DNA from: an uncultured Thermodesulfobacteriota bacterium
Lineage (GTDB): Bacteria > Desulfobacterota > Anaeroferrophillalia > Anaeroferrophillales > Anaeroferrophillaceae
NCBI GenBank assembly: GCA_964478545.1
Contig: CAYZIS010000009.1
Coordinates: 2,070-66,069, forward strand
Length of the DNA: 64,000 nt
Direction of reading: 5' to 3'
Part shown: in pieces, positions 871 to 25,500 of the stretch
Numbering within the stretch: position 1 is the first letter of the stretch
Layout: each line of letters opens with the position of its first letter
Translations under genes and position numbers: made by a program
The notes under the pieces: model-generated
Database searches by the model: none
What the model saw: the letters and a program-made list of their open reading frames with translations, nothing else
What the model was told of the DNA's origin: nothing

Positions 871-924
871 TGGTTTTCCTTTTCAATTGTATTGTAAGAA
901 ATTAAGCGATTTTTTGGTTATTGA

Positions 925-1013
925 AGGGGGCAAGGGGAATCGAACCTCCTCCCGGTTTTGCAGACCGGACCAACGGGTTTGAAGCCCGCGGGGCGCCCAG
1001 CACCATTACCCCC
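925..1013 (-). tRNA. selC: tRNA-Sec (selenocysteine tRNA, anticodon UCA)
   Basis: Reverse complement reads GGGGGTAATGGTGCTGGGCGCCCCGCGGGCTTCAAACCCGTTGGTCCGGTCTGCAAAACCGGGAGGAGGTTCGATTCCCCTTGCCCCC. It has an 8-bp acceptor stem (GGGGGTAA/TTGCCCCC), an anticodon loop CUUCAAA with UCA, a long variable arm, a T-loop GGTTCGATTCC, and about 89 nt with no encoded CCA. Confidence 0.8.
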
Positions 1014-1113
1014 GGATATATAACGTGTAATGGTATCCTAACCCGGCATAGACATTTATTTTGAGTGGTTATTGCCAGCGGATAGGCGGATATGGCGATT
1101 AAAAACCAGTTTC

Positions 1114-1347
1114 CTATTTCCTGGATTCTTGTGTATCAACAACAATTTCCAAATCAGACAATAGATTTTCCAATTCAAGATTAAACCTTTCTGAAACTAC
1201 TTGGATGGTATCAAAAAGAGCCTCGCAACATATGCAGACACCTGCCTTTTCATCAAATTTTTTAAAGACCTTTTCGGTTTCTCGATAACGTGCAATGGTA
1301 TCTATAACGGTCATTTCAGGGTGAATGTGTTTTTCTTTTTTTGACAT
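1114..1347 (-). CDS. DUF1858-like small protein (hybrid-cluster-protein-associated redox disulfide domain type)
   Basis: 77-aa ORF with a CICC motif. It sits between selC and the YjeF-C gene in the same orientation as the Se cluster. Confidence 0.35.
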   Translation of the reverse strand: MSKKEKHIHPEMTVIDTIARYRETEKVFKKFDEKAGVCICCEALFDTIQVVSERFNLELENLLSDLEIVVDTQESRK

Positions 1348-1350
1348 TTT

Positions 1351-2214: not shown

Positions 2215-2759
2215 TGGCGTTGTACCTCCTCAAATGCTAGCTGCAAGGCATATCCACAAAGGGTATGGCCTATTTCACGGGGGCTGGGCGCATTGGTGAG
2301 AGTTTGACCCACCATCTCATAAGCCAGATAGGGAACATCGGGGCACCCACCCCCGGAAACATTGACAATATTTCCAGTTGTCTTTTCAACGGTCAGTTTC
2401 ATATTAGCCGCCCGGACCATGATGTGCTCACCAAAATCCTTAATATGAAAAAGATCCACCGGTTGCAGAAGGGGGCTGGTTACGGGAACCATCTCTAAAG
2501 GAGGAATTCCTTCTTTTTCAAGAGTCCTGAAAATGTTCAGCTCTTCTATGAGGGGAAACTCGATGATGAGATCACAGCCGCTTTGAATTTCAGGCGGCGG
2601 TCCCATAACCCGGATTTTCCAGCCTTCCTTTTTCAGGACATTTTCTGCCTGAATAACCTCACTGGTGTTTTCAAAGACCATAATCCCGCGATCGGCATTT
2701 CCATTATTGCCCGGTGCGCCCTGCTCTTGTTTGCGCTTAAAAAAGCTGAAAAGAGACAC
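2202..2759 (-). CDS. DUF3343 (putative Se/S carrier) domain protein with an extra Cys-containing C-terminal region
   Basis: The N-terminal segment MVFENTSEVIQAENVLKKEGWKIRVMGPPPEIQSGCDLIIEF matches the DUF3343 pattern. The gene sits next to yedF/yedE. Confidence 0.5.
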   Translation of the reverse strand: MSLFSFFKRKQEQGAPGNNGNADRGIMVFENTSEVIQAENVLKKEGWKIRVMGPPPEIQSGCDLIIEFPLIEELNIFRTLEKEGIPPLEMVPVTSPLLQPVDLFHIKDFGEHIMVRAANMKLTVEKTTGNIVNVSGGGCPDVPYLAYEMVGQTLTNAPSPREIGHTLCGYALQLAFEEVQRQCSP

Positions 2760-2761
2760 TG

Positions 2762-2980
2762 CTAATCCTTTCTTATGGTAATCTTATACTCGCCGCTTTC
2801 TTCACTGACATCGGTTACTTTCCACTCCTGACTGGTGGCGGCACGTGAGACATTTTCCTTTGAGGTCTCCGTATCTACAAGAATTTCAATCTCGTTTGAA
2901 TTTTCTGTCTTCATCTCATTCAGAGCCATTAAAACAGGTTGAGGGCAGGAAAGACCCCGGGCGTCAACTTTAGTACTCAT
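2762..2980 (-). CDS. yedF: TusA-like sulfurtransferase / YedF (CPxP motif)
   Basis: 72 aa with GLSCPQPVL, the TusA/YedF active-site motif. It lies immediately downstream of yedE. Confidence 0.65.
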   Translation of the reverse strand: MSTKVDARGLSCPQPVLMALNEMKTENSNEIEILVDTETSKENVSRAATSQEWKVTDVSEESGEYKITIRKD

Positions 2981-2995
2981 ATATTTCTCCCTTCT

Positions 2996-4087
2996 TTAAG
3001 CAATTCTTTTTCTCATCGTAAATCCGATAAACAGACAAACAATCAGGCCAATGATGACTGCCGGAATGCCATAAGGTCCCACCCCTTTTGGGGAACTGGC
3101 CAGACCGAAATTGTGGGCGAATCCCGCCCCGACGATCATTCCCAGTACAAAAACTGCGGCATCCCCATCACCTTCTCCAGACAGGAAAAGCTGACGTCCG
3201 GGACATCCACCAGCAAGAGCAAAGGCAAGACCGGACAGAGCCATCCCCGCAAAGTTCCAGATCTGCATGGTATGAGCTACCGGCTGACCTTTGAATCCTA
3301 AGTGAAACTGTCCGACGATGAGATTGGTAATAAAAGCAGCAACAATAAGTGCGGCGAATCCTGAAAGCAGGTGGGTTTGACGAAAGAGGATAAAATCGCG
3401 CAGGGCACCCATAGTACAAAACCTGCTGCGCTGGGCCAGGAATCCTATAGCAAGACCAATTCCCAGTGATATAAGAAGGGGGGCGTGTATTGCGCCGGGA
3501 CCTTTCAGGCTGTAAAAAAGGACACCGCTTTTGTTTTGACCTTCAATCTGCGGAAAGGCAATGAGAAGAATCAAAAAACCAAGCATTATGAGCGGCAGCA
3601 TCCATCCCGCCGCCGCATGGGTAGTCTGGGTGCGCCCCAGATTGTAACCTTTTTTGAGGAAGAGAGTTCCGATCCAGATGCCGATGATCAGTCCCAGCAG
3701 GCCGAAAATTGCGTTACCATCACCGCCCGCAAGGCGCAAAGCCGCCCGCCAGGGACATCCTAAGAAAACAAGAGCACCAATCATGGCAAAGGCCCCCAGC
3801 ACAAAGCGGACAATGGGAGCGGAACCGAGCCGGGGACGATATTCCTTGAACAAATATGCAGCCATGAGTGAGCCCATAACAAAGCCAATAATTTCCGGTC
3901 GTATATACTGGACAACCCCGGCACGATGTAACCCGAGGGCGCCGGCAATATCCCTTTCAAAACAGGCTACACAGATACCCATATTTCCAGGATTTCCCCA
4001 CTTCTGTAAAAGGGCCGCAAAGATACCGATAAATAAACCTACGCCTATAATTCCCCCCCGGGTTGCAAAAATATTTTTAAACCTCAT
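2996..4087 (-). CDS. yedE: YedE/YeeE family membrane protein (putative selenium/thiosulfate transport)
   Basis: 363-aa polytopic membrane protein with Gly-rich helices and conserved Cys (CVACFERD, GGCPGR). The gene is in a yedE-yedF pairing. Confidence 0.6.
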   Translation of the reverse strand: MRFKNIFATRGGIIGVGLFIGIFAALLQKWGNPGNMGICVACFERDIAGALGLHRAGVVQYIRPEIIGFVMGSLMAAYLFKEYRPRLGSAPIVRFVLGAFAMIGALVFLGCPWRAALRLAGGDGNAIFGLLGLIIGIWIGTLFLKKGYNLGRTQTTHAAAGWMLPLIMLGFLILLIAFPQIEGQNKSGVLFYSLKGPGAIHAPLLISLGIGLAIGFLAQRSRFCTMGALRDFILFRQTHLLSGFAALIVAAFITNLIVGQFHLGFKGQPVAHTMQIWNFAGMALSGLAFALAGGCPGRQLFLSGEGDGDAAVFVLGMIVGAGFAHNFGLASSPKGVGPYGIPAVIIGLIVCLFIGFTMRKRIA

Positions 4088-5874: not shown

Positions 5875-6807
5875 ATGAGCAGGAAAATTGCCGGTAATCT
5901 TGTCGATCTGGTAGGGAATACCCCACTGCTCCGGCTCCCTTCACTGTCCAGTGAGAGTAGAGCGAACATCATTGCCAAGCTGGAATATTTCAACCCCCTT
6001 TCCAGCGTCAAGGATCGAATTGCCATGGCTATGATCAACGCCGGGGAAAAGGCAGGAAAATTAAAACCGGGGGGGTTGATTGTTGAGCCAACCAGCGGCA
6101 ACACTGGTATAGGCCTGGCTTTTGTTGCCGCTGCCCGCGGTTACCGGCTGATTTTGACTATGCCGGATACCATGAGCGTGGAGCGGAGGAATCTGATGCG
6201 GTCTTTAGGGGCCAAGCTCGTCTTAACTCCGGGTAGCGTTGGTATGAAAGGGGCGATTGACCAGGCGGCAGAAATACAAGCTCAAAATCAGGGAAGTTTC
6301 ATGCCCCAGCAGTTCAATAATCCGGCCAACCCGGAAATACACCGGCAGACAACTGCGGTTGAAATATGGCACGATACCGACGGCAAAGTTGACGTGCTGG
6401 TTGCCGGGGTGGGCACTGGCGGCACCATCACCGGCTGCGGAGAATTTTTAAAAGGGAAAAAAGCGGGTATACAGATAATCGCCGTGGAACCGGCAGAATC
6501 CGCTGTCCTTTCCGGCCAGGCAGCTGCCCCCCATCGCATCCAGGGTATTGGCGCCGGATTTATTCCCGAAATACTAAACTTGGGGATCATTGATAAAATT
6601 ATTACAACTTCGTCGGATGAAGCCGGGGCCATGTGCCGACAACTGGCGGAAAAAGAAGGTCTTTTGGTCGGTATTTCCTCCGGGGCTGCAGCCGTTGCCG
6701 CCCTTAAAGTTGGACGGAAACCTGAAAACTTGGGGAAGGTAATTGTGGTTATTTTCCCTGACAGCGGCGAACGCTATCTGTCTACCTGGGCCTTTAATGA
6801 AACATAA
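5875..6807 (+). CDS. cysK: Cysteine synthase A (O-acetylserine sulfhydrylase). Probable ATG at 5875 with an RBS; the ORF track starts at a TTG at 5860.
   Basis: [15 protein letters not shown] (the PLP lysine), a GTGGT-type glycine loop, and about 310 aa. Confidence 0.9.
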
Positions 6808-6966
6808 GTTAAGCGATCAACTGTTAGCTGTCAGCATTTGGCTTTAAAAAATCAAGACATTATGTTCATGAGCAACAAAACCCAAAAGCTGACAGCTTGG
6901 AACAGGAAAAATGTTGTAATTATTGAACAAATAGTTAACGGCTAAAAGCTAATAGCTCAATTCAGG
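6808..6966. mobile_element. MITE-like element, family A copy 1 (about 159 bp, about 45-nt terminal inverted repeats)
   Basis: Left arm 6808-6842 is the reverse complement of the right arm 6930-6966 (GCTAA.AGCTAATAGC...ATCGCTTAA.TT.AGG). The same TIR pair is found at three other loci. Confidence 0.5.
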
Positions 6967-11357: not shown

Positions 11358-11457
11358 ACAATGAAAAAAAGGAGGGAATGGAACAAAACCTGGGATGGTG
11401 AAAAAGAAATTCATTGGAAGAAATGATAACGTAAGCGGAAGAGGAGGGAAGCAAAAG

Positions 11458-12741
11458 ATGAAATTTAGAAGATTTTTATTATTGGTCTCGGCTGTGGCCT
11501 TGGTGCTTGCCTTGACAATCAGCGGCAAAGTCATGGCGGCGGAAAATACCTGTATCTCCTGTCATGAAAAGGTATCCCCGGGACAGGTGGCTGACTGGCG
11601 AACCAGTATACACTCGGCTGAGGATGTAAGCTGTGCTGATTGCCACGGCAGCAAACACCAGAAAGCCAATGATGGTGATCTGGCGGTCCTGCCCAGCGAG
11701 CATGTCTGCGCTGAATGCCATGAAGAACAATTCTCCCAGTTTTCCAAGGGTAAACATAACTTTGGCTGGACATCCTTGAACGCCATGAATATCACCCACG
11801 TGGAACCAGACGAGTTGATGGAAGGAGGCCGGGGTTGCGGTGGCTGTCATAACATGGGTATCAAGAGCGAGGCCCAGAAAAAAGAGCAGATGGACAAGGA
11901 CTATCGCTACCAGAATAACTCCTGTGACGAATGTCACACCCGCCATAGCTTCTCTAAGAAGGAAGCCCAGGATCCCCATGCCTGCCAGCAATGCCATATG
12001 GGCTATGATCATCCCCAGTGGGAGATGTGGAGCAGCGCCAAGCATGGGACCCGCTGGTTCGCCAGGGAGGCCGGCCGCCTGGATAAAAACGCCCCGGCAC
12101 CCACCTGCCAATTCTGTCATTTGCCCAATGGTAATCACGAAAATCATACCGCCTGGGGTTTTCTCGGCGTTCGCCTGCCATTGCCTGAGGATAAACAATG
12201 GGCTGCCGACCGGGTAACAATTCTGAAAGCTCTCGGCGTCCTCGACCCTTTTACCGGGAAACCAACCGCTCGTCTCGCACTGGTCACTTCGGTTGACATG
12301 GTCCGCGCAACCCAGGAAGCCTGGGAAACTGAACGGGAAAAAATGATCAAGACCTGTGCCAAGTGCCACGCGGAAAAATACGCCCGCTCACAGCTGGAAA
12401 TGGGTGATTCAATGCTGCAGAAAGCCGACCGCCTGCTGGCCGAAGGCATTGAGATCGTCGCCGGCCTCTATAAAGACGGAACTATCAAAAAACCGGACAC
12501 CTATACCTTTGCCTATCCCGACTTTTTCTACTTCCTGCGCACCGGCGGCGGCAATCTGGACCAGGCAACGTTTATTGAGCAGGTGCTGTTCCAGATGTAC
12601 ATGAAGCATCGGATGCGCACCTACCAGGCGCAGTTCCATGTCAATCCGGATTACGCCTACTGGTACGGCTGGGCGATGATGACCAAGGACCTGGTGGAAA
12701 TTAAGGACCTGGCCCACACCATGCGGGCAACCCACAAATAG
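11458..12741 (+). CDS. Octahaem c-type cytochrome, HAO/epsilon-Hao-like (8 CxxCH), with a signal peptide. The probable start (MKFRRF...) is at 11458; the upstream ATG of the track ORF is at 11395.
   Basis: Eight CxxCH motifs (CISCH, CADCH, CAECH, CGGCH, CDECH, CQQCH, CQFCH, CAKCH) in about 430 aa. A good RBS (GGAGGG) precedes 11458. Confidence 0.8.
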   Translation: MKFRRFLLLVSAVALVLALTISGKVMAAENTCISCHEKVSPGQVADWRTSIHSAEDVSCADCHGSKHQKANDGDLAVLPSEHVCAECHEEQFSQFSKGKHNFGWTSLNAMNITHVEPDELMEGGRGCGGCHNMGIKSEAQKKEQMDKDYRYQNNSCDECHTRHSFSKKEAQDPHACQQCHMGYDHPQWEMWSSAKHGTRWFAREAGRLDKNAPAPTCQFCHLPNGNHENHTAWGFLGVRLPLPEDKQWAADRVTILKALGVLDPFTGKPTARLALVTSVDMVRATQEAWETEREKMIKTCAKCHAEKYARSQLEMGDSMLQKADRLLAEGIEIVAGLYKDGTIKKPDTYTFAYPDFFYFLRTGGGNLDQATFIEQVLFQMYMKHRMRTYQAQFHVNPDYAYWYGWAMMTKDLVEIKDLAHTMRATHK

Positions 12742-13629: not shown

Positions 13630-14223
13630 ATGAAGATAAAAATAAAAAAACTGGCGATGGTGCAGATGGGATATTCATTCCGATCCCGTCTTGAAGCCTC
13701 CAGTAGCGGTGGCGTCGCGGTTATCCAGATGAAAGACCTTCTTGATGACAACACGGTTGGCTGTGGTGACTTGGTAAAAATTGATATGGAGATGGTCAAA
13801 GAACATCACCTTGTGCAGAAGGGAGATTTGGTTTTCAGGTCGCGTGGACACGTAACTACGGCAGCGGTTCTTCTTGAGGAACCGGGGAAGGCGGTTGTTG
13901 CCGCTCCTCTATTAAGGATAAGGATTACCAAGCCGGACAGGGTTTTGCCCGAGTATCTGAACTGGTACATCAGCCAACGGGATGCGCAGATTTTCCTGAC
14001 CAGCAGAGCCAAAGGCACGGTCCAGAAGATGATCAGCAAACAGGCGATTGAGGAGCTTGAAGTTTCATTGCCAAGTTTGGAAAAACAGAAAAATATCGTT
14101 GAGCTGGCATCGCTTATCGCGAGAGAACAAAACCTGCTTCAGCAGATTTCCGAAAAGCGGGAGAAATACATCTCAACAGTACTCATGCAGTTTGCCAAAG
14201 GAACCACGAATGCACACCAATAA
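13630..14223 (+). CDS. hsdS: Type I RM specificity subunit, half-size HsdS (single target-recognition domain plus a conserved coiled region)
   Basis: LPSLEKQKNIVELASLIAREQNLLQQI is the HsdS conserved repeat. Length 197 aa. A -35/-10-like promoter (TTGACA at about 13562) lies upstream. Confidence 0.7.
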   Translation: MKIKIKKLAMVQMGYSFRSRLEASSSGGVAVIQMKDLLDDNTVGCGDLVKIDMEMVKEHHLVQKGDLVFRSRGHVTTAAVLLEEPGKAVVAAPLLRIRITKPDRVLPEYLNWYISQRDAQIFLTSRAKGTVQKMISKQAIEELEVSLPSLEKQKNIVELASLIAREQNLLQQISEKREKYISTVLMQFAKGTTNAHQ

Positions 14224-14592
14224 ACACGAATTATTACTGAAGGATGAAGTATACCAAGTCGTGGGTTGCACTATGGAGGTTTTGAATACGCTCGGTCACG
14301 GGCTACTGGAAAAGCCGTATGAAAATGCATTGGTGGTCGAGTTTGGGTAAGGGGAATCTCTTTCCAGCAGCAGAAACGATTTCCAGTGGTTTATAAATCA
14401 GTTCAGGTCGGGGAATATATTCCAGATTTGATCGCTTTTGATCAAATGGTGATTGACACCAAAGTCATCGAATCTATTGGCAATAATGAAAGAGCCCAAA
14501 TCATCAACTATCTCAAAATAACCGGTCTACGGGTCGGGCTCATCCTCAATTTTAAGCATGCAAAATTAGAGTGGGAACGTATCGTCCTATGA
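14210..14592 (+). pseudogene. GxxExxY protein (PD-(D/E)XK nuclease, PDDEXK_3 family) split by a 1-nt frameshift in a G-run near 14344-14349
   Basis: The N-terminal part reads EVYQVVGCTMEVLNTLGHGLLEKPYENALVVEF. It continues in another frame as VRGISFQQQKRFPVVYKSVQVGEYIPDLIAFD...AQIINYLKITGLRVGLILNF, matching the family end-to-end. Confidence 0.6.
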
Positions 14593-14648
14593 AGATTATT
14601 CGTGTAAATTCGTGTCCATTAGTGGTTTCAAAATAAGGAGAATAAAAC

Positions 14649-16277
14649 ATGAACAGCAAGATTGACCAGAGAGACATCAACAACGCGGCCTGGGCGGCGT
14701 GTGACACCTTCCGAGGGGTTGTTGATCCGGCCCAGTACAAAGACTACATCCTGGTGATGCTGTTTTTGAAATACATCTCCGATGTCTGGCAGGACCATTA
14801 CGATGAATATCAAAAGCAGCATGGCGATGATGATGTTCGTATCCGCCGCAAACTCGAGCGTGAACGCTTTGTTCTCCCAATAGTGAAACTGACGGAAAAA
14901 AATGATCAGACCGGTGAAGAAACGGTGCTAGATGAGTTCCCCGCCAACTACTACAGCCTTTACGAACGCAGATCAGCCGCCAATATCGGTGAGCTGATCA
15001 ACATCGTTCTCGACCATATTGAAGAAAACAACAAGACCAAACTTGAAGGGGTTTTCCGCAATATCGACTTTAACAGCGAGGCCAATCTTGGCAAGACCAA
15101 AGACCGTAACCGCCGCCTGAAACAGCTGCTGGAAGATTTCCATAAACCACAACTCAACATGAAGCCCAGCCTCGTCTCCGAGGATGTGATCGGCAACACT
15201 TATATCTATCTGATCGAACGTTTTGCTTCCGACTCCGGAAAGAAGGCCGGGGAGTTCTTTACCCCGCTGAAGGTTACCGAACTGGTCGCCAAGCTGGCCG
15301 GCCCTAAACCGGGCGACCGTATCTGCGACCCGGCCTGCGGCTCCGGCGGTCTGTTGATTCAGGCAGCCAAACAGGTGGGCGACCTGTCTGCGGGCAACAC
15401 ACAGGCAGGCCGTAACTTTGCCCTCTTCGGCCAAGAATCAAACGGCAGCACCTGGGCGCTCTGCCGCATGAATATGTTCCTCCACAGTTTTGACAGCGCC
15501 CGGATTGAGTGGTGCGATACGCTGAACAGCCCGCTCTTGGTTGAAAATGATCGCCTGATGAAATTCAACTGCGTGGTGGCCAATCCGCCATTTTCGCTGG
15601 ACAAATGGGGCGCTGAGAATGCTGAGAGCGATCAATACAACCGCTTCTGGCGCGGCGTTCCGCCAAAAAGCAAAGGCGACTGGGCCTTTATCAGTCACAT
15701 GGTGGAAATTGCACTGGAAAAAGAGGGTCGTGTGGTCGTGGTGGTTCCCCACGGGGTGCTGTTCCGAGGCGCTGCCGAGGGACGTATCCGGGAAAAGATG
15801 ATTGAAGAAAACCTGCTTGATGCGGTGATCGGCCTGCCGGGCAACCTGTTTCCGACCACCAATATTCCGGTGGCGATTCTGGTCTTTGACCGCTCAAGGG
15901 AAAAAGGCGGTGCCCGCGAAGCGTGCAAGAATGTTCTCTTTATTGATGCCAGTCGGGAGTTTGTCTCCGGTAAAAACCGGAATACCCTTTCTGAAGAACA
16001 TCTGGCCAAGATCATGGAAATCTACACGGCCAGAACCGAAGTGGAAAAATACGCCCATGTGGCTGACGTTGTAGAGATCAAGGAAAACGACTTCAACCTC
16101 AACATCCCCCGCTATGTGGACACCTTTGAAGAGGAAGAGGAAATCGACATCGATGCGGTTCAGCTGGAAATTGAGGCGCTGGAAAAAGAGCTGGCAGAAG
16201 TGCGGGTGAAAATGGCCGAAAAAATGCAGCAAATCCAGAGAAACCACGAATGCACACAAATAGACACGAATGTTTAG
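14649..16277 (+). CDS. hsdM: Type I RM DNA methyltransferase subunit (N6-adenine)
   Basis: VANPPF catalytic motif, a DPACGSGG AdoMet motif, an HsdM N-terminal domain, and 542 aa. The last 11 codons are supplied by repeat element R. Confidence 0.9.
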   Translation: MNSKIDQRDINNAAWAACDTFRGVVDPAQYKDYILVMLFLKYISDVWQDHYDEYQKQHGDDDVRIRRKLERERFVLPIVKLTEKNDQTGEETVLDEFPANYYSLYERRSAANIGELINIVLDHIEENNKTKLEGVFRNIDFNSEANLGKTKDRNRRLKQLLEDFHKPQLNMKPSLVSEDVIGNTYIYLIERFASDSGKKAGEFFTPLKVTELVAKLAGPKPGDRICDPACGSGGLLIQAAKQVGDLSAGNTQAGRNFALFGQESNGSTWALCRMNMFLHSFDSARIEWCDTLNSPLLVENDRLMKFNCVVANPPFSLDKWGAENAESDQYNRFWRGVPPKSKGDWAFISHMVEIALEKEGRVVVVVPHGVLFRGAAEGRIREKMIEENLLDAVIGLPGNLFPTTNIPVAILVFDRSREKGGAREACKNVLFIDASREFVSGKNRNTLSEEHLAKIMEIYTARTEVEKYAHVADVVEIKENDFNLNIPRYVDTFEEEEEIDIDAVQLEIEALEKELAEVRVKMAEKMQQIQRNHECTQIDTNV

Positions 16278-16305
16278 AACCACGGAAAGCTCAAGGAGAT
16301 TCAGC

Positions 16306-16900
16306 GATGAATAAAGACAAAGGCAAACTTTCCCTTCAAGATGAATTAGCCGAATTTCTGCTGTACACCACTCCAGATGGAGGAGTGAAGGTGGAGGTTT
16401 TCCTTTACGGCGAGACCGTCTGGCTACCGCAGAAACGTATTGCAGAGCTCTTTGGGGTTGGTGTGCCTGCCATTTCCAAGCACTTGGATAATATTTACGC
16501 AAGCGGTGAACTGGAAAAACCAGCAACTGTTTCCATTTTGGAAACAGTTCAGCTGGAAGGGAAACGTCAAGTGGCGCGATCTGACACCACTATCGGGAAA
16601 AACTATCTGTCAGAAACGGAAATCAAACAGTTGGAACGTACTGTATCCGCATTCTTTGACTACATTGAAAACATCGTTGAACGCCGCAATAGCTTTACCA
16701 TGAAAAGCTTTACAGCGAGCGTGAATAAGTTTTTGGAGTTCAATGAATATAAAATTCTGGAAGGTCACGGCTCTATTTCCCGCATGCAGGCGGAAGAGAA
16801 GGCTTTCGGCGAATACGAAAGGTTCAACAAGACACAGCTTATAGATTCTGATTTTGACAGGATGGTGAAGGAGTTGTCTACGGAGGGGAACCACGAATGA
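16306..16900 (+). CDS. RhuM-family N-terminal-domain paralogue (short). The track ORF starts at 16250, inside the repeat.
   Basis: YTTPDGGVKVEVFLYGETVWLPQKRIAELFGVGVPAISKHLDNIYASGEL parallels the RhuM N-terminus of the 21515 gene. The conserved leader AAGGAGATTCAGCGATG precedes it. Confidence 0.5.
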
Positions 16901-17039
16901 GCATGAATAGACACGAATAATTAGAACCACGGACGACACGGAAAAACACTGAATTGAAAGCGTTTGATTTTCCGTGCCTTCCGTGCCTTCCGTGCTTTCC
17001 GTGGTTAAAGATGGCCGATAAGCTCAAGGAGATTCAGCG

Positions 17040-17933
17040 ATGATAAATATTGATATTGAAAAACATCACCATCAGACATTTGAGAAAATCAAGCAGACGG
17101 CACAGAATGGTTCTGAGTTCTGGATGGCGCGCCGACTAGCCAAGCTCCTCGACTACGCTGAGTTTCGCAATTTTCTGCCGGTCATCGAAAAGGCGAAAAA
17201 AGCCTGTGAAAATAGTGGTCAGTCCGTGAAAAACCATTTCGTGGAAATGCACGAGATGGTTTCAATTGGTTCCGGAGCTGAGCGAAAAATGAAATCCTAC
17301 GGGCTCTCCCGTTATGCCTGTTACTTGATTGTACAAAATGGCGACCCATCCAAGCCGGTCATCGCCAACGGTCAGACCTATTTCGCCATGCAGACCCGAA
17401 GGCAGGAATTAGCCGATGACCAGGCTTTTCAGCGCCTCAAGGAGGATGAAAAGCGCCTTTTTCTGCGCAACGAAATGCGGGAGCACAACAAACAGCTGGT
17501 GGAAGCTGCTCAACAGGCTGGTGTTGAATCCAATCTCGACTTTGCCATATTCCAGAACCATGGCTACAAAGGACTGTACGGTGGGCTGGACGCCAAGGGG
17601 ATTCATAAACATAAAGGATTGAAAAAGAGCCAACAAATTCTCGACAACATGGGTAGCACCGAACTTGCCGCCAACCTTTTTCGCGCTACGCAAACCGAAG
17701 AAAAACTGCGCCGGGAAAATATTCAGGGCAAGACCAAGGCTAACAAAACCCATTTTGAAGTCGGTAAAAAAGTCCGCCAAACCATCGAAGAACTTGGTGG
17801 AACCATGCCGGAAAATCTCCCGACACCGGACGAAGACCTAAAGAAACTGAAAAGACGGGTGAAGTCGGCAGGGAAAAAGCTGATCAAAGGGTGTGAACTG
17901 CCGGAAAGAGGAACCACGAATGCACACGAATAG
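17040..17933 (+). CDS. dinD: DNA-damage-inducible protein D (DinD) family protein
   Basis: The N-terminus HHQTFEKIKQTAQNGSEFWMARRLAKLLDYAEFRNFLPVIEKAKKACENSG closely matches the DinD family. Such genes are frequently embedded in Type I RM loci. Confidence 0.6.
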   Translation: MINIDIEKHHHQTFEKIKQTAQNGSEFWMARRLAKLLDYAEFRNFLPVIEKAKKACENSGQSVKNHFVEMHEMVSIGSGAERKMKSYGLSRYACYLIVQNGDPSKPVIANGQTYFAMQTRRQELADDQAFQRLKEDEKRLFLRNEMREHNKQLVEAAQQAGVESNLDFAIFQNHGYKGLYGGLDAKGIHKHKGLKKSQQILDNMGSTELAANLFRATQTEEKLRRENIQGKTKANKTHFEVGKKVRQTIEELGGTMPENLPTPDEDLKKLKRRVKSAGKKLIKGCELPERGTTNAHE

Positions 17934-18053
17934 ACACGAATGCTTAGAACCACGGACGACACGGAAAAACACGGAATTGAGAACGTTTAATCTTCCGTGC
18001 CTTCCGTGCTTTCCGTGGTTAAAAATAGCCGAGAAACTCAATGAGATTCAGCG

Positions 18054-19250
18054 ATGAACAAAAAAGATGCTCTCCCAAAAGGATGGAAAAACATAAAGCT
18101 TAAAAAGCTTGTTACTCAGGAAATCAAGAATGGCTATTCACCCAACTGTCCTGAAGAACCAAACGGGAGTTGGATTCTGGGCTTAGGAAATTTAACCGAA
18201 AACGGGTTTGATCCATCCCAGGCAAAACCAGCTCCCAAAGGTGATAGCAGAGTAAAAGACTTTTTACTTGAACCTGGTGATTTTTTAATTAGTCGATCTA
18301 ACACGTTAGACAAGGTTGGAAGGACAATGTTGTTCAGAGGTGAAATTGAAAACTGCTCTTATCCAGATTTACTCATGAGATTTCGTGTAGATGAAACTTA
18401 GGTTACAAATGAATTTTTGGAGGGGTATTTAAGGAGCTCAGTAGTCAGGAAATACATCCAAGGCTGCGCCTCTGGTACAAGCAACAGCATGGTGAAGATC
18501 AATAAAACAATTGTCGAAAAAATACCTATTGTTTTGCCTCCCCATCCAGAGCAAAAAGCCATTGCCGATTTGCTGTCCACCTGGGATGAGGCCATCGAGA
18601 AAACCGAACGGCTGATTCTGGCGCAGGAGAAGCGGTTTAAACAACTGCTGCGGGAGTTGTTAAGAGAAAAAGTCGAGCTGGGGAAAATTGAATTAGGGAA
18701 GGTTTGTAAGATAACAAAAGGAAAACAGTTAAATATAGCTCATATGAATCGTGATGGTTATTATTATGCCTTAAATGGCGGGATTAAACCATCTGGAAGA
18801 ACTGATGATTGGAACACCAAAGCAGGAACCATAACTATCAGTGAAGGTGGAAACTCATGCGGATATGTAAACTTCAATACACAAAGATTCTGGTCTGGTG
18901 GGCATTGTTATTCACTTCTTAATCTAAAAAAATCTGTAGACTCACACTACCTGTTCTTTTATCTAAAAATGAACGAGCCCAAACTTATGAACTTACGGGT
19001 TGGATCTGGACTCCCCAACATACAAAAGAAAGACGTTGATCGGTTTAAAATATCGATCCCACCGCTCGCAGAACAGCATCAAATAGCCGAGACATTATCC
19101 GCCGCCCAACAGGAAATCAACCTGCTGAAACAGCTTGCAGAAAGATACAAAACCCAGAAACGCGGTCTGAGGCAGAAGATGCTCACGGGCGAATGGCGGG
19201 TAAAACCTGAAATCATTACCCAATATGCGGAAGAGGTGCCATGCAAATAA
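18054..19250 (+). pseudogene. hsdS: Type I RM specificity subunit (two TRDs) interrupted by an in-frame TAG at 18399-18401. Both halves are in the same frame.
   Basis: TRD1 (18054-18398), then TAG, then VTNEF-LEGYLRS..., central conserved region, TRD2, and the C-terminal conserved ISIPPLAEQHQIAETLSAAQQEINLLKQLAERYK. Confidence 0.65.
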
Positions 19251-19840
19251 AGCTTACCTATTACAAACCGCAGACGTTGATCCCGGTTATCGGTCTGCTC
19301 TGGGCTCTTTCATCGTGGGCGCTTTCTAAGCTTTGGGGTTACGGCTTCCTACAAGGCACCGGGCCAACCGCCATCGTGATATTTTTTCTAACAGTCTATG
19401 ACAAGTGGCTGTGGAAATACCCTTTGTTTAACTTAATGAACACAATCCCAAACTTGAACGGCATGTATGAAGGAAAAATATCCTTTCACTGGAACGGACA
19501 GGCTGAATCAAAAGACTGTGAACTAGAAATCAAGCAAACCTGTTCAAACATAAAGGTAAAAACGATTTTCACGAAAGAAGGCGAAAACGATACACAGTCC
19601 GTCAGCACCGAAGCATTCATAAAAACTGACGAGGTTAGCGACCAGCATCTCTATTTTTATTATCGCAGTCGTGGTTCCGGGATGGATGGTGACACTCTTG
19701 ATCAGCACGAGGGTATGAATGTTTTGGAGATTCTGAAGAACAACGGATTGATCCAGCTTGATGGATACTATTTTACCAACCGTAATCCTCAAACAAAAGG
19801 CTGCATGAAAGCTACGAAAACAAACAAAGGAGCTAAATAA
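19241..19840 (+). CDS. Small membrane protein with two N-terminal TM helices and a beta-rich C-terminal domain (Cap15-like or 2TM-type CBASS effector candidate)
   Basis: TM1 is LIPVIGLLWALSSWALSKLW and TM2 is GPTAIVIFFLTVYDKWLWKY, followed by about 130 aa of beta-type sequence. The start overlaps the hsdS stop, and the stop overlaps the next start (TAATG). Confidence 0.4.
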   Translation: MQIKLTYYKPQTLIPVIGLLWALSSWALSKLWGYGFLQGTGPTAIVIFFLTVYDKWLWKYPLFNLMNTIPNLNGMYEGKISFHWNGQAESKDCELEIKQTCSNIKVKTIFTKEGENDTQSVSTEAFIKTDEVSDQHLYFYYRSRGSGMDGDTLDQHEGMNVLEILKNNGLIQLDGYYFTNRNPQTKGCMKATKTNKGAK

Positions 19841-20823
19841 TGGATACACATAAACTGTTCTCTGATTTCGATGCTGTAATTCGACTAAACACCTCAAAAA
19901 TAAGTAAATTAAAAAGCAACCGCACAGCACTCCGCAATAAAATTAAAGATCACTTCAAAAAGAACAACTGGACCGCACCAAAATTCTACTCTCAGGGTTC
20001 CTTCCCTTTGAACACAAACCTAAATCCGATCAAAAAAACTACAAGTGATGGAGATGTTAAAGAAGAGTATGACTTGGATGATGGCGTGTATTTCATCTGC
20101 CCAAAATCAGAGCGCAAAGAGCCAGCGACTTATCATGATCGCATCAAGAAGGCTGTGGATGATCATGCCGAAAGCGTCATAGACAAAACAACCTGTGTTA
20201 GGGTTGTATACATAGATGGACATCACATTGATCTGCCGTCTTATTGGCTTGAAAAGGACGGTAACACACCACAACTTACTCACAAGTCTAAAGGTTTTAC
20301 TGATAGCGACCCGAAAGCTTTTAATGAATGGGTTGATGACAATATTTCCAGAGCCAGTAACAATGGTCAACTCCGCAGAATCATCCGCTACTTAAAGGCA
20401 TGGAAGAATTATCGTGAAAATAGCAACAGTACTCTGGAGCTACCGTCAGGTTTCATTTTAACGATTTTGGCATGCAATCATTTTTCAAAGAACAGCCGTG
20501 ATGATCTATCCTTCAAAGGAACAGTTGAATCTATCAAAAATTCACTAAATTTAAGCTTCACCTGTTATCGTCCAACCGTCCCCACCCATGAGGAGCTTTT
20601 GTTTGATTATTCAAAAGATACAGTAATAAAAGAGCTAACCAGCCTGATCGACAACGCACAGAAAGCGATTGATTCGGATTGTGAGAAAAAAGCGTCTGAA
20701 TTCTGGCACAAAGTGTTTGGGGATCGTTTCCCGTCGGGTAAAGAGAAGGATGAGAAGCCCAAGCAATCTACAGCATCCAACACAACCAGAACAAAGGTCA
20801 GTGCTCCATGGGCATCGTTCTAA
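19840..20823 (+). CDS. cGAS/DncV-like nucleotidyltransferase (CD-NTase, SMODS-domain) candidate
   Basis: Pol-beta NTase signature QGSF...SDGDV...YDLDDG, a later VRVVYIDGHHIDLP (third acidic strand), and a C-terminal helical region RRIIRYLKAWKNY typical of CD-NTases. Length 327 aa. Confidence 0.5.
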   Translation: MDTHKLFSDFDAVIRLNTSKISKLKSNRTALRNKIKDHFKKNNWTAPKFYSQGSFPLNTNLNPIKKTTSDGDVKEEYDLDDGVYFICPKSERKEPATYHDRIKKAVDDHAESVIDKTTCVRVVYIDGHHIDLPSYWLEKDGNTPQLTHKSKGFTDSDPKAFNEWVDDNISRASNNGQLRRIIRYLKAWKNYRENSNSTLELPSGFILTILACNHFSKNSRDDLSFKGTVESIKNSLNLSFTCYRPTVPTHEELLFDYSKDTVIKELTSLIDNAQKAIDSDCEKKASEFWHKVFGDRFPSGKEKDEKPKQSTASNTTRTKVSAPWASF

Positions 20824-21440
20824 CAGAACAAGATAAACAAGAGTTGGCTCAAGATTACCCTGCGCTTAACTGTAGTTTGCCGCGAGGGGTAATCTGGGGA
20901 ACCTTGGAGTTGGCTTGTTCATTCGATGAGTCCGCAAATGAAGTTGTTCATGAAGACTCATTTGATAATTACATCCGCGACTGTTATGAGATACGCGTCG
21001 ATTTCAATCAGGCAGACACTTTTGGTTTTCCCAAAGTGTTCGAGGAGTCGGGAATCATTAGAAATTTTGCGGACAGCAATGGTATCAAGCCAGAAGATTT
21101 GCATGTAAACAAAGATGATGCTGACAGCTGCTGTTTGGGGATCTTCCCTGAATATCATTGGACAGGTGCCGCTTCATTCATACGAGATAAGGTAGTGCCG
21201 TTTTTTTACTGGCAGTCTTATCGACGCTTCTATGAGAAAAAACCATGGAAAGGCTATACACATGGCAACCGTGGCATTGTGGAGGCGATGAGTATGCCTC
21301 TCAATGAATCCTCAAAAGGTCACTCACGTAATAAACGATGCCCATGCGGAAGCGGCCAAAAATACAAAAAATGTTGCATGTCTCGAGATGCGATTCTGCG
21401 AAATAAACTATCCAAATCTATTACATCTCGAAAGAGTTGA
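20808..21440 (+). CDS. UBC/E2-like fold protein with a C-terminal SEC-C metal-binding motif (candidate Cap2-like E2-only accessory)
   Basis: Pattern LAQDYPALNCSLPRGVIWGTLEL...YEIRVDF...FPKVF...LHVNKDDADSCCLGIFPEYHW resembles the UBC fold (an HPN-like HVN plus a catalytic Cys). It ends CPCGSGQKYKKCC. The 5' end overlaps the NTase gene by 16 nt. Confidence 0.35.
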   Translation: MGIVLTEQDKQELAQDYPALNCSLPRGVIWGTLELACSFDESANEVVHEDSFDNYIRDCYEIRVDFNQADTFGFPKVFEESGIIRNFADSNGIKPEDLHVNKDDADSCCLGIFPEYHWTGAASFIRDKVVPFFYWQSYRRFYEKKPWKGYTHGNRGIVEAMSMPLNESSKGHSRNKRCPCGSGQKYKKCCMSRDAILRNKLSKSITSRKS

Positions 21441-21442
21441 TA

Positions 21443-21505
21443 ATGACCAATTTCCAAATAAACGAAAAGCATCTTTCTCAAATCCCTGCGATTTTGAGTT
21501 ATTAG
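21443..21505 (+). pseudogene. Duplicated 5' end of hsdR (20 codons, MTNFQINEKHLSQIPAILSY*) left upstream of the inserted rhuM
   Basis: AAATAAACGAAAAGCATCTTTCTCAA is repeated at 21454-21480 and at 22558-22587 (the true hsdR start MHNFQINEKHLSQLPAV). Confidence 0.5.
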
Positions 21506-21514
21506 GGGTGAGTT

Positions 21515-22555
21515 ATGAATAATGATGGCTTGAAAAACAACTCTGAGCTCATGATCTACCAAACCCCTGATGGGAGTATCAAAATAGATGTCCGCCTTGA
21601 GGATGAAAGCGTCTGGCTGACACAGGCGCATATGGCGAAGCTGTTTCAGGTGAAACCGCAGAATATCACCATGCACCTGAAAAACATCTATGCCGAGGGT
21701 GAACTATCCGAAAAGGCAACTTGTCAGGAATTCTTACAAGTTCAAACCGAGGGTTCCCGTCAGGTTGAACGAAAACGGAAGCTTTACAATCTCGACGCAA
21801 TTATTTCCGTGGGTTACCGTATCCAGTCTCAAGTGGCGACCCACTTCCGCATCTGGGCGACGCAACGACTGAAAGAGTACATTGTCAAAGGCTTTGCGTT
21901 AAACGATGACAGATTCAAAAGTGGTCAATCAATGAACTATTTCACGGAACTGCAGGAACGCATCCGCGAAATTCGGCTCTCCGAGCGGTTTTTTTATCAG
22001 AAGATCAAGGACATCTACACCACCAGCATTGACTATGACCCCAGGGATGAAAAGACGATTGAGTTCTTCAAGATCGTTCAAAACAAGTTGCTTTGGGCGA
22101 TCAGCGAACAGACGGCGGCGGAGCTAATCTATCGTCGCGCGGATGCGGCATTGCCCCTAATGGGAATGCAGTCGTTCGATAAGAAAGGCGTGCCGGTCCG
22201 GAAAGGCGATGTTAACATCGCCAAAAACTATCTTCAGGAAGATGAAATAAAACTGCTGGGGTTACTGGTGGAACAGTATCTTGCCTTTGCCGAAACCATG
22301 GCACAACAGCACACAACGATGTATATGAAGGACTGGATTGGGCGGCTTGATGCCATCATTCAACTGAACGGACGGGAACTGCTCACTCACGCCGGAAAGA
22401 TCAGCCATCAACTGGCGTTGGAGAAATCGGCCCGGGAGTATGAAAAATACCAAGAAACACAAAAGCAACTTCAGCACAAAGAGAGTCTGCGGGAACTGGA
22501 GCAGGATCTAAAGCGGCTCAAAAAACCTGGGCAGGCTGGAGACGGCAATGCATAA
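21515..22555 (+). CDS. rhuM: Virulence protein RhuM family (Fic/DOC-related) protein
   Basis: 346 aa. LMIYQTPDGSIKIDVRLEDESVWLTQAHMAKLFQV...ISVGYRIQSQVATHFRIWATQRLKEYIVKGFALNDDRFK is the RhuM family signature. Confidence 0.8.
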   Translation: MNNDGLKNNSELMIYQTPDGSIKIDVRLEDESVWLTQAHMAKLFQVKPQNITMHLKNIYAEGELSEKATCQEFLQVQTEGSRQVERKRKLYNLDAIISVGYRIQSQVATHFRIWATQRLKEYIVKGFALNDDRFKSGQSMNYFTELQERIREIRLSERFFYQKIKDIYTTSIDYDPRDEKTIEFFKIVQNKLLWAISEQTAAELIYRRADAALPLMGMQSFDKKGVPVRKGDVNIAKNYLQEDEIKLLGLLVEQYLAFAETMAQQHTTMYMKDWIGRLDAIIQLNGRELLTHAGKISHQLALEKSAREYEKYQETQKQLQHKESLRELEQDLKRLKKPGQAGDGNA

Positions 22556-25500
22556 CTTTCAGATAAACGAAAAGCATCTTTCTCAACTTCCGGCGGTGCA
22601 ACTGCTGATATCACTGAGCTATGAATATATTTCTCCGGTTGAAGCGCTCCGTGAACGACAGGGAAGAGTTGCCAATGTCTTGCTGGAAAACATTCTCCGC
22701 AATCAGCTCAAAGAAATCAACCGCATTCGCTACAAAGGAAATGAATATCTGTTTAGCGAGGAAAATGTTCAGTCCGCCATCCAGAAGCTGAAAAACATTA
22801 AATATGACGGTTTGCTGAAAACCAATGAAGCAATTTATGATCTGATCACCCTGGGAACGGCCATGGAGCAGACCATCGAGGGTGATTCTAAAAGTTATAA
22901 TTTGAACTATGTTGACTGGCACAATCCCGGCCGCAACAGATTTCACGTGACGGTTGAATACAGTGTTGAGCGGTCCCGGAGCACCGAGACCACCCGGCCG
23001 GATATTGTCCTCTTTGTTAACGGCATTCCTTTTTGCGTGATTGAATGCAAAGCCCCACAGATTGAAGTTGAACAGGCAGTCTCCCAATCCATTAGAAATC
23101 AGAACGACGACTATATTCCGAAGTTATTCATCTATACCCAGTTGGTTCTGGCATTCAATAAGAACAGCGCGATGTTCGCAACCACCGGAACTGCAGCAAA
23201 GTTCTGGTCCATCTGGAAGGAACCACGAATGGACACAAATAAACACGAATACAATAAATTGAAGAAACTGGTAGATGAGTCTGTTCGTGTTGAAATTGAA
23301 CCCAAATCCTTTGAGATTCACTCAGAGCAAAATATTAGTGAAGATTCGTGTTCATTCGTGGTTTCGAAAGAGCGTTTGGTGACGGAGCAAGACAAAGCCC
23401 TTTTTGCTCTCTGCCGCCCGGAACGCCTGCTGGAACTGGCTTGGAAGTTCATTGTTTTTGATGGCGGCATTAAAAAGATTGCCCGCTATCAACAGTATTT
23501 TGTCATCAAGTCCACTCTGAACCGGATCAAGCATTTTGACCGTAACGGTTCCCGCAAGGGCGGTGTTATCTGGCACACGCAGGGGTCAGGGAAATCCCTG
23601 ACCATGGTGATGCTGGCCCGGAATCTGGCCTTGGATCCGGAGATATTGAATCCTCGCATTGTTCTGGTCACCGACCGGGATGATTTGGACAAGCAGCTGG
23701 GTAATACTTTTGCCGCCTGCGGACTGGAAGCCAATCGGGCAACATCGGGAAGAAATCTGCTGGAGTTGGTAGCTGAAAAAAACTCCGGCATTATCACCAC
23801 GCTCATTCATAAATTCGACAAGGCTTACGCGGTAAGAAAATACCAGGATAAATCCCCCGACATTTTCATTCTTGTGGATGAAAGCCACCGTACCCAGTTC
23901 GGCTCGTTTTCCGCCCGTATGCGCCAGATGTTTCCCCATGCCTGCTATCTGGGATTTACAGGTACTCCGTTGCTGAAAAAAGAGAAAAACAACTTCACCA
24001 GGTTCGGAGAACTAGTGGAGCCGCATTACTCCATTTCACAGGCGGTAGAAGACGGCGCGGTCGTTCCACTCTTGTATGAAGGACGGCATGTGGAGATGAC
24101 CCAGAACAAGGCTGCTGTGGACCTCTGGTTCGAGCGTCATACCCAAGGCTTGAGCAAAGAACAGCAGGCGGACCTGAAACGTAAATATGCTCGGGCGGAA
24201 ATGCTGAACAAGGCTTATCAGGTCATTTACATGAGGGCCTTTGATATCAGTGAACACTTTCGGGCTAATTGGCAGGACACCGGGTTCAAGGCACAACTGG
24301 TCGCGCCAAATAAGGCTTCGGCGCTTAAATACCATGCGTATTTGAATGACATCGGCATGGTCAGTTCGGAAGTTGTTATTTCCCCTCCGGATATGCGTGA
24401 AGGCTATGAAAAGACGGACGATGAAACGACTGATGACGTGGTAAGGTTCTGGCAGAAAATGGTGAAACGCTATGGCAGCAAGGAGGAGTATACCAAGCAG
24501 CTCATCAACCAGTTTAAACACGGGAGCGATCCCGAAATCCTTATTGTCGTCGATAAGCTCTTAACCGGCTTTGACGCGCCAAGAAACGCGGTACTTTATT
24601 TATGCAGGGTTCTCAGGGAACATTCGTTGCTTCAGGCTATCGCGCGGGTTAACCGGATCCATGAAGGCAAGGAGTTCGGTTTTATCGTCGATTATGCAAA
24701 TGTTCTTGGTGAGCTGGATAAAGCGCTGACCATGTATAGCGCGTTTGAGGGTTTCGACGAATCGGATCTTGTCGGTACTCTTACTTCCATCAACAGCGAA
24801 ATTGAAAAACTGCCGGGGCGCTATTCGGATTTATGGGATTTCTTTAAGTCGGTAAAGCATTCTTATGATGAAGAGGCATACGAGGTTTTGCTTGCTGATG
24901 ATGAATTAAGGGAAGAGTTTTATAGTCGTCTTTCTGAATTTGGTAAAAACCTCGGTATCGCTCTTTCTTCTGAAAAGTTTTTGTCTGAGACAGATGAAAA
25001 AACTCTGTCCAGATACAAGGCTGATCTCCGGAAATTCCAATCGCTTAAGGCATCTGTCAAGTTGCGCTATGCTGAAGCTATTGATTACCGGGATTATGAG
25101 CCGAAAATCAAGAAGCTGCTGGATACCCATATTCAAGCCAATGAGGTTATCCAGCTCAACGAGCCGGTTAACATCTTCGATGACAAAATGTTCAATCAGG
25201 TAAAAGAGGAGCAAGGAGTTTATCAAACCAGGAAAACCACGGCCTCCAAAGCCGATATGATTGCTCACGCAACGAAAAAAGTGATTACGGAAAAAATGTT
25301 CGAAGACCCTGCTTTTTACGAAAAATTTTCAAAGCTGATCCAGCGGGCTATTGAAGATTTCAGAGCAAAAAGAATATCGGATCTGGATTATCTCAATAAA
25401 GTCGTTGAGGTCAGGAATAAAGTCGTCGGCAAGGTTCATGATGATGTTCCTGATAAACTTTCCGGCAATGAAGATGCCATGGCCTATTATGGGATACTGA

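Follow-up and report, generated by a model that had tools for sequence, protein, structure and literature searches.

Genes and junctions of the restriction-modification island

We analysed a 64,000-nt stretch of contig CAYZIS010000009.1 from an uncultured Thermodesulfobacteriota bacterium (the window; all coordinates are positions in it), in which a Type I restriction-modification (RM) island carries copies of a 30-bp repeat, R, at the junctions between its genes. The island comprises, in order, a half-size hsdS, a frameshifted GxxExxY gene (PDDEXK_3/TIGR04256), hsdM, an internally deleted rhuM (rhuM'), dinD, an hsdS with an in-frame stop, a cyclic oligonucleotide-based anti-phage signalling system (CBASS) module (two-transmembrane (2TM) Cap15-like effector, CD-NTase and E2-like gene), a full rhuM, hsdR and ygjP; profile matches to Pfam, TIGR04256 and PADLOC bore out the gene calls of a first-pass annotation of this DNA. 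That annotation had interpreted R, the hairpins beside it and a conserved leader as a portable unit with which passenger genes are shuttled into the operon. Our favoured explanation, to which we assign a probability of about 0.7, is instead that R is the arm of a widespread family of small palindromic elements associated with GxxExxY genes, that the leader is left over from a copy of the hsdM 3' end and that the island holds copies of both.

The degenerate 32-mer GGAACCACGAATGCACACMAATARACACGAAT, with at most 3 mismatches, was found on the + strand at 14200, 16240, 17910 and 23219 and had 0 matches in 100 shuffles, and a repeat search recovered a fifth, more diverged direct copy at 16887 (84%; repeat family D3). 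The leader AGCTCAAGGAGATTCAGCGATGA was located at 16288, 17021 and 18035, with 0 copies expected by chance, and R, the hairpins and the leader are therefore all present where they had first been reported. Three copies of R had been overlooked, namely those at 14598-14627 (inverted), 23221-23250 (direct) and 23334-23363 (inverted), and since inverted copies exist, two of the five direct ones each form the left arm of a complete inverted pair. We defined the family operationally by a 30-nt arm of the 10-mers AACC[AG]CnnAT / nnAC[AG]CnnAT / nnAC[AG]CnnAT together with an inverted partner; the arms starting at 14202, 14598 (- strand), 16242, 16889, 17912, 23221 and 23334 (- strand) fit this arm.

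The first complete element lies between the half-size hsdS and hsdM. Its left arm (14202..14231, + strand, three 10-mers) supplies the last codons and the stop of the half-size hsdS (13630..14223, +, Pfam Methylase_S; ...FAKG joined to TTNAHQ*), a gene that in clean relatives of the locus ends ...MQFAKGE*, 4 nt upstream of hsdM. The same arm holds the ATG at 14210 of the GxxExxY gene (14210..14592, +), and the resulting N-terminus, MDTNKHELL..., is conserved in about 100 homologs, in agreement with the earlier proposal that an ATG in the motif opens this frame. A 1-nt frameshift near 14344-14350 divides the gene into fragments matching profile positions 2-35 and 37-117. The inverted right arm (14598..14627, -) closes a 426-nt element (14202-14627; repeat pair I9), which is full-length in the sense that a PDDEXK_3/TIGR04256 gene, here frameshifted, starts in its left arm.

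Around rhuM' and dinD stand three paralogous junction modules (J1 to J3) of R, hairpin and leader, all in direct orientation. hsdM (14649..16277, +) retains its own C-terminus, ...KMAEKMQQIQR, and continues into an arm-encoded tail, NHECTQIDTNV*, which the window HsdM alone possesses among the 120 homologs listed. J1 consists of a solo R arm (16242..16271, +), recovered by pattern match and by repeat search, and a remainder (16278..16310, +) in which a 9-nt relic of the sister-family hairpin (AACCACGGA) is fused to 24 nt left over from the hsdM 3' end, the former leader; these 24 nt provide rhuM' (16307..16900, +) with its Shine-Dalgarno (SD) sequence, AAGGAG, and its ATGA start. The product of rhuM' matches the RhuM Pfam profile at positions 157-248 only, together with an N-terminal PADLOC PDC-S05 match, and ends ...EGNHE* in the diverged solo arm of J2 (16889..16918, +; repeat families D3 and D4). 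This arm is followed by HP2a (16925..17006, +), a complete empty element of a sister family with three left and four right units of the type ACACGGAA, and by a relic of about the last 12 codons of hsdM (AAAGATGGCCGATAAGCTCAAGGAGATTCAGCGATGA; 17007..17043, +) with the SD sequence and ATG of dinD (17040..17933, +; DNA-damage-inducible protein D, PADLOC PDC-S13). dinD in turn ends ...ELPER joined to GTTNAHE* in the solo arm of J3 (17912..17941, +), behind which lie a second complete empty sister-family element, HP2b (17948..18020, +), and an hsdM 3' relic (18021..18057, +) with the SD sequence and ATG of hsdS (18054..19250, +; in-frame TAG at 18399-18401). The long junction copies at 16884-16997 and 17907-18020 are 89% identical (family D4).

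A complete, empty R element of 147 nt, or 49 codons (23219..23365, +; arms 23221-23250 and 23334-23363), lies in frame within hsdR, in the stretch separating the nuclease domain (HSDR_N, residues 6-216) from the helicase domain (SWI2/SNF2, from residue 315), at a position where HsdR homologs all have a variable linker of 40-50 aa. The suggestion that the upstream gene ends inside the motif at each junction held for the half-size hsdS, rhuM' and dinD, whose stops (14221-14223, 16898-16900 and 17931-17933) are within R, and failed for hsdM, whose stop (16275-16277) falls 4 nt past it. At 16250 a further ATG in R opens a frame running into rhuM'. Left arms carry stops in two of the three frames, formed at the spacer bases (AATAG, AATAA, AATGA); the remaining frame (PRMDTNKHE) stays open, and it is in this frame that the hsdR copy is translated. 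Right arms are open in most cases. This pattern explains both the reading frames that end in or just after R and the read-through copy in hsdR, and the stop codons in R are an incidental property of its spacer bases. In-frame colonisation as a general habit of the family, as in the Rickettsia elements, was rejected, as long open frames crossed only 4 of 71 short elements, mostly as GC-rich artefacts, and the lengths of these 71 showed no bias to multiples of three.

The broken GxxExxY gene, the TAG-bearing hsdS and the rhuM' without its middle recur as identical gene fragments in the independent ENA assembly ERZ27316679. The gene decay is thus probably real, and the RM system of the window may be inactive.

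An element family across bacterial phyla

R is exactly 30 nt long and is built of three tandem 10-mers (AACCACGAAT / GrACACGAAT / nnACACGAAT). The wider search that the first-pass annotation had proposed, carried out with AACCACGAATGNNCAYNAATNNNCACGAAT over 185,579 species genomes, matched in at least 120 DNA stretches, which belong to more than 10 phyla, and revealed a dispersed repeat that extends far beyond one locus. Carriers included Verrucomicrobiota, Planctomycetota, Lentisphaerota, Acidobacteriota, Desulfobacterota, Chlamydiota, Armatimonadota, Binatia, Nitrospinota and others, as well as the Gammaproteobacteria Halofilum, Ectothiorhodospiraceae and Nitrosomonas. When 256 copies were aligned, conservation was sharply bounded by the 30-nt arm, with nothing conserved in the element interior or beyond.

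Inverted copies formed 89 convergent pairs with size modes of 58-220 nt and 426-473 nt. The short pairs were empty, and most R elements outside the window were empty hairpins of this kind in unrelated contexts. The large pairs (about 410-570 nt overall) each held a GxxExxY gene with its ATG in the left arm (MxTNxHE...), coding for a PD-(D/E)XK nuclease-fold protein of about 127 aa that keeps the invariant E...PD...(D/E)xK residues. Such full-length members were found in loci L013, L041, L072, L093 and L115 and in most of L121-L200, the latter being a converse sample of 80 metagenome loci selected solely for GxxExxY protein similarity (38-85% identity). Most of the genes with sufficient flank in these loci had inverted arms of three 10-mers beginning AACC[AG]C, and such arms were counted for about 55 of 72 protein-selected GxxExxY genes. 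A homolog search at E<=1e-10 returned at least 8000 GxxExxY candidates, and homologs were 76-90% identical across phyla with the arm-encoded N-terminus included.

The heptamer core of the unit varied between families, and did so in concert in all six units of an element (CACGAAT, CACGGAT, CACAGAT, CGCGAAT, CGCAGAT, CACTGAT and CACGAAG); a unit type was shared within a locus in 52% of cases vs 41%, a weak effect. This concerted variation identifies the long junction hairpin (AACCACGGAC GACACGGAAA AACACGGAAT ...) as an empty element of a sister family with CACGGAA units. R and HP2 are, in our judgement, very probably the arms of palindromic elements associated with GxxExxY genes.

Cargo other than GxxExxY was rare: L064 carries an AbiP2-type defence reverse transcriptase between inverted R arms (PADLOC E = 2.5e-206), L069 a 316-aa protein without known identity and L096 a rhuM that starts in an R arm. 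Besides the window, rhuM directly adjoins a GxxExxY element or R arm in the three unrelated loci L047, L096 and L128, which could reflect coincidence in defence islands or a real association. A general link of the elements to Type I RM was discarded, with homologs of the RM-island genes in only 6 of the 200 arm-bearing loci analysed (+/-4 kb each), and carriage on phages or plasmids was likewise rejected, with 11 viral contigs and no plasmid match. An orientation-bias test found 75% of genes co-directional with their neighbours; as about 75% is usual for adjacent bacterial genes, orientation is not informative.

In a Nitrosomonas metagenome-assembled genome (JALRCN010000002.1; positions 1-3500 of locus L009), at least nine hairpins of the superfamily occupy 3.4 kb and stand between a ParDE-like toxin-antitoxin (TA) pair, a pair formed by DUF4160 and DUF2442 genes, a small gene coding for a coiled coil and a GxxExxY gene. 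The left arms there are systematically CACTAAT/CGCTAAT and right arms CACGAAT/CGCGAAT, and the layout resembles an integron array, with no integrase within the 8 kb examined.

HsdM homologs (P0122-P0240) from Firmicutes, Bacteroidota, Spirochaetota, Chlorobiota, Desulfobacterota and candidate phyla are 87-93% identical, GxxExxY homologs (P0241-P0360) are 76-90% identical over a similar phylum range, and two contigs (33,235 and 28,222 bp) appear to carry both. The two genes look like very recently and widely transferred ones.

The leader and the history of the junctions

The origin of the leader became apparent from clean relatives of the same RM system (Syntrophotaleaceae contig L201, and also L204/205 and L208-211), which have the order hsdS-half, hsdM, hsdS, DUF2188, patatin, CD-NTase ... 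and hsdR, with tight or overlapping junctions and no arms. In these loci the leader occurs once and forms the last 21-38 nt of hsdM, TAAAAATGGCCGAGAAGCTCAAGGAGATTCAGCGATGA, encoding ...KMAEKLKEIQR*, with the next ATG in an ATGA overlap. The window copies are identical to this clean hsdM 3' end at 36 of 38 positions (in J2, to that of L201), right up to the end of the hairpin. Had the leader been something else, hsdM 3' ends should have differed from it; in more than 100 HsdM homologs (87-93% identical, from many phyla) the opposite was seen, as these end ...KMAEKLKEIQR or in close variants. The leader is almost certainly a relic, of 24-38 nt, of the hsdM 3' end, retained because it holds the SD sequence AAGGAG and a start codon, and its description as a portable sequence had to be abandoned.

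Related RM loci carry CBASS, KilA-N and dinD cargo with hsdM 3' relics and without any arms. L207 reads hsdM-ATGA-KilA-N, after which come a dinD 3' relic and, ahead of hsdS, a decayed hsdM 3' relic, again armless, and in L202 fragments of rhuM lie between hsdM and a copy of the leader. In the window itself, the first 20 codons of hsdR (MTNFQINEKHLSQIPAILSY*; 21443..21505, +; family D14) precede the full rhuM, directly after the CBASS E2-like gene and with no arms. This 5' relic is the counterpart of the hsdM 3' relics, matches the real hsdR start at 22548 with 82% identity and indicates that rhuM and hsdR were joined to a locus where CBASS abutted hsdR. Relics without arms (L207, L202 and the hsdR relic) show cargo stacking in this RM family to be recombination that leaves hsd gene-end relics, for which arms are unnecessary.

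These observations bear on the cassette system put forward in the first-pass annotation, an integron-like arrangement in which a passenger gene, a stop codon, a terminator hairpin and a ribosome-binding-site (RBS) leader would be inserted as a unit by a cognate recombinase. As a description the picture retains some value, in that three direct R + hairpin + leader units bracket rhuM' and dinD, yet the leader, being the end of hsdM, is not part of a mobile unit. The AbiP2 gene between inverted R arms in L064 and the rhuM starting in an R arm in L096 look like cassettes, whereas clean relatives hold CBASS, KilA-N and dinD cargo with no arms, and the CBASS genes and second rhuM of the window are armless at their borders. 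The Nitrosomonas hairpins separate TA modules and small genes, but most elements elsewhere are empty and not beside cargo. The arm ends AAC...GTT are 96-98% conserved and the four outer bases 41-47%, reading ttgAAC / GTTcaa, a weak flank reminiscent of attC R boxes (core sites RYYYAAC...GTTRRRY); against this, a tblastn search with E. coli XerD found nothing better than E = 1.4 in the window and no XerD-like recombinase in the 200 arm-bearing loci (+/-4 kb each), its one match being in a viral contig. Nor did the hairpins resemble terminators, since the sequences 3' of them (AAAGATGG and AAAAATAG) contain no T run and an intrinsic terminator scan found no + strand site at 16925-17006 or 17948-18020. 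We consider a cassette system with a portable terminator and RBS unlikely.

The orthologous locus of Desulfamplus magnetovallimortis (L064; hsdM 83% identical at the nucleotide level) allowed part of the history to be traced. Its hsdM-dinD junction is without a repeat, and it has the unit of dinD 3' end, degenerate R arm (3731-3760, orthologous to the arm of J3), sister hairpin (3770-3843, the ortholog of HP2b), leader and hsdS. As the J3-type unit in front of hsdS is orthologous in Desulfamplus, the module predates the split, and the copies before dinD and rhuM' in the window are later duplicates, the hairpin of the copy before rhuM' being deleted between CGGA and AAGC.

Arms of different families were also found at equivalent places. 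At the junction of the half-size hsdS and hsdM, the exact place that the CACGAAT-family element takes in the window is occupied in L064 by an element of the CACGGAA family, whose GxxExxY gene is a different one and intact, and in the closer relative L121 the CACGAAT element is preceded by a one-unit relic of a CACGGAT arm. In the HsdR orthologs P0001 and L202 the same position of the linker holds in-frame arms of the CACGGAA type; L201 looks decayed there. Partial arms just outside full arms were counted in 21 of 458 cases, with about 8 expected by chance. From these cases we infer recurrent replacement of, or insertion into, pre-existing arms; such homing into or replacing of older arms would explain why different families occupy the same hsdS-hsdM junctions and hsdR linkers.

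Constraint on the arms, mechanism and known systems

Agreement between the two arms of an element was computed on 162 unique pairs against shuffled partners. Unit-defining positions agreed at 0.83-0.93 vs 0.60-0.63 for shuffled arms, and spacer dinucleotides agreed at about chance (0.39-0.48 vs 0.32-0.40). Since the unit positions match and the spacers do not, the constraint is on the repeated unit and not on base pairing. This result is pertinent to the idea that the hairpins are RNA-level devices (RNase III processing sites of the kind known from 23S rRNA intervening sequences, 3' stabilisers or translation insulators) kept for operon expression. The hairpins at 16925-17006 and 17948-18020 do fold strongly (-27.9 and -34.9 kcal/mol; z -3.2 and -6.7) and sit at cistron boundaries in one operon, but solo arms cannot fold (J1 -7.5 kcal/mol, z -0.1), the predicted arm fold being three short helices with internal loops between them. 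Base-pair covariation was sought and rejected, the spacers showing none, and recurrent G/T differences between arms produce U-C or A-G mismatches and no wobble pairs. The architecture and size resemble the Coxiella 23S rRNA intervening sequence (IVS), which is 428 nt long with an S23p ORF between inverted repeats (PMC4990558), and repetitive extragenic palindromes (REPs) have proposed roles in mRNA stabilisation (PMC3733652), whereas a mere stem would not need a heptamer conserved across phyla and one copy is translated as protein in hsdR. Rfam scans (gathering and E-value thresholds) matched only a tRNA-Sec in the window, with no rRNA and nothing above chance in 14000-23600. An RNA-level role is accordingly improbable; as judged from the aligned arms, it is the helically phased heptamer, and not a perfect stem, that is kept, and the phased heptamers can be viewed as a putative protein recognition array. 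That they are iteron- or centromere-like sites for a host DNA-binding protein unrelated to GxxExxY, with the gene hitch-hiking, would accord with three units per arm at 10-bp spacing, with constraint on unit identity and with the weak link of GxxExxY clade to unit type, but is very improbable given that no other gene is consistently adjacent, that more than 10 phyla, whose host proteins differ greatly, share the same arm and that about three quarters of protein-selected GxxExxY genes have arms.

Under our favoured explanation, R is the 30-bp terminal inverted repeat of a small palindromic selfish element with three helically phased 10-bp units, of which full-length copies (about 410-570 bp) carry one gene and short copies (58-220 bp) are gene-less, resembling REPs, REP doublets (REPINs) or derivatives of miniature inverted-repeat transposable elements (MITEs). 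The RM island holds one frameshifted full R element, one empty R element in the hsdR linker, three solo R arms fused to gene 3' ends and two sister-family hairpins. The unit of R, hairpin and relic would have arisen once and then been copied as recombination stacked the modules of rhuM' and dinD between hsdM and hsdS; for rearrangements, dispersed arms may offer portable homology. The GxxExxY protein would recognise the phased heptamers and mobilise or home both full and empty copies. No target-site duplication was detected, as direct flank identity was at chance for k = 1-7 over 160 elements, and the inverted repeat extends 1-3 nt into the flanks; an AAAGG-like repeat at the hsdS-hsdM site, considered as a duplication, did not prove general. 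We propose only tentatively that GxxExxY is the mobilising enzyme and that new copies home into older arms. The broadest version, in which R, HP2 and their relatives form an undescribed pan-bacterial superfamily without target duplication, with three phased 10-bp sites per end and a GxxExxY enzyme, that preferentially homes into or replaces older arms and can bracket and move defence genes (AbiP2, rhuM), is possible, although we would not call it probable.

Several points weigh against this explanation. The mobility of the elements is read from sequence and the role of GxxExxY from association; the copy of the gene in the window is a pseudogene, and in these 64 kb the R and sister arms are confined to the RM island. 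GxxExxY clade tracked unit type weakly (0.572 vs 0.518, p = 0.02), and proteins 70-78% identical carry different units, which is awkward for simple protein-site co-evolution; strict co-evolution of clade and unit type was rejected on this weak signal and constitutes the main unexplained point. The GxxExxY gene of the Nitrosomonas locus is flanked by two complete hairpins and not by two single arms. The order of events behind the triplication of the junction unit could not be reconstructed. An AlphaFold model of GxxExxY was too poor (pLDDT 43) and was left out of a fold search, and no PDB relative was found by sequence.

In working logic the elements are closest to REPs, bacterial interspersed mosaic elements (BIMEs) and REPINs with their REP-associated tyrosine transposases (RAYTs). 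Both are dispersed palindromes of small size that lie mostly between genes or at their 3' ends and form inverted doublets with one small gene between inverted copies as the presumed mobiliser; in both, target duplication is absent and related families coexist in a genome. REP heads carry a GTAG or CGTC tetranucleotide (PMC3733652), which is missing from the arm head AACCAC / AACCGC. The flanked gene here matches only PF13366 / TIGR04256 and not the Y1 HUH (IS200/IS605-like) RAYT, the arms consist of three tandem 10-mers where a REP is a single imperfect palindrome of 20-40 bp, and the same arm is found across phyla, unlike the lineage-specific REPs.

The Correia, ERIC and RUP MITEs and the Rickettsia palindromic elements are gene-less, 60-200 bp long, have terminal inverted repeats, alter ORF ends and occasionally lie in frame. 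Terminal inverted repeats, landing at gene ends and an in-frame copy, as in hsdR, are shared with the present family, which differs in lacking target-site duplication, in a parent without a recognisable transposase and in an interior that is not conserved between genomes; compared with the Rickettsia elements, in-frame copies are also rare and mostly spurious. The Coxiella IVS is likewise a selfish element of about 430 nt with a small ORF and a long stem, tolerated inside an essential transcript, but S23p is a four-helix bundle and not a PD-(D/E)XK protein, and phased 10-mers are not described for IVSs. Integron attC sites are imperfect 60-150 nt palindromes between promoterless genes, with AAC...GTT ends and unpaired spacers between paired boxes, and TA modules are neighbours in one of our arrays (L009) as in integron arrays; here, however, no IntI/XerD-like recombinase was found in the window or loci, the arms are sequence-conserved tandem repeats, array genes are not uniformly oriented and most copies are isolated. 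With defence islands in Type I RM operons (rhuM as PDC-S05, dinD as PDC-S13, CBASS) the window shares cargo and positions, as the hsdM-hsdS and hsdS-hsdR gaps match related loci, and departs from them in that its junctions are also colonised by palindromes and triplicated hsdM 3' relics. Literature searches, within the library covered, did not find the repeat sequences or a link of GxxExxY to repeats, the papers that name GxxExxY being without discussion of repeats, and PDDEXK_3 is listed as a family of unknown function with multiple transfers (PMC3424549). The element family itself appears to be undescribed.

Other repeats occur elsewhere in the window. A second, unrelated palindromic family (6806-6963, 47853-48210, 56640-56790 and 60723-60879) has arms of approximately 7-nt CTAAnnG / TTAGC units enclosing 80-300 nt, and all of its copies are intergenic and outside the RM island; as all R and HP2 arms are inside, this suggests that the island is foreign to the genome. 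Two conserved intergenic families of 50-60 nt were seen, one at 38894-38947, 50114-50167 and 51970-52023, containing GGCATGGCTCTCGCT, which resembles a sigma-54 (-24/-12) promoter, and one in three copies at 44066-44118, 46531-46614 and 54253-54336. The window also contains the tRNA-Sec gene (926-1013, -, Rfam 52 bits) and multihaem cytochrome genes (11395-12741), which are both in keeping with a host of the Desulfobacterota type. Two paralogous stretches at 60883-61709 and 63092-63918 (71-74% identical, at a distance of 2209 nt) lie on ORFs of the - strand (60883-62994 and 63092-63976).

The arms account for odd peptide tails (...GTTNAHE*, MDTNKHE..., ...FVFIRVHSW...), for extended or truncated ORF ends and for in-frame insertions such as that in HsdR, and it is hsd gene-end relics, not a special cassette leader, that mark cargo stacking in RM and defence islands. 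A 30-bp word common to many phyla is rare and must owe its range to intense horizontal spread or to strong constraint on a recognition site. The GxxExxY/PDDEXK_3 family is very large, and its embedding between cognate phased repeats leads to the hypothesis that it is a repeat-associated nuclease. If GxxExxY is also the mobilising or homing enzyme, the system would work as a counterpart of REP/RAYT that relies on an enzyme of another kind.

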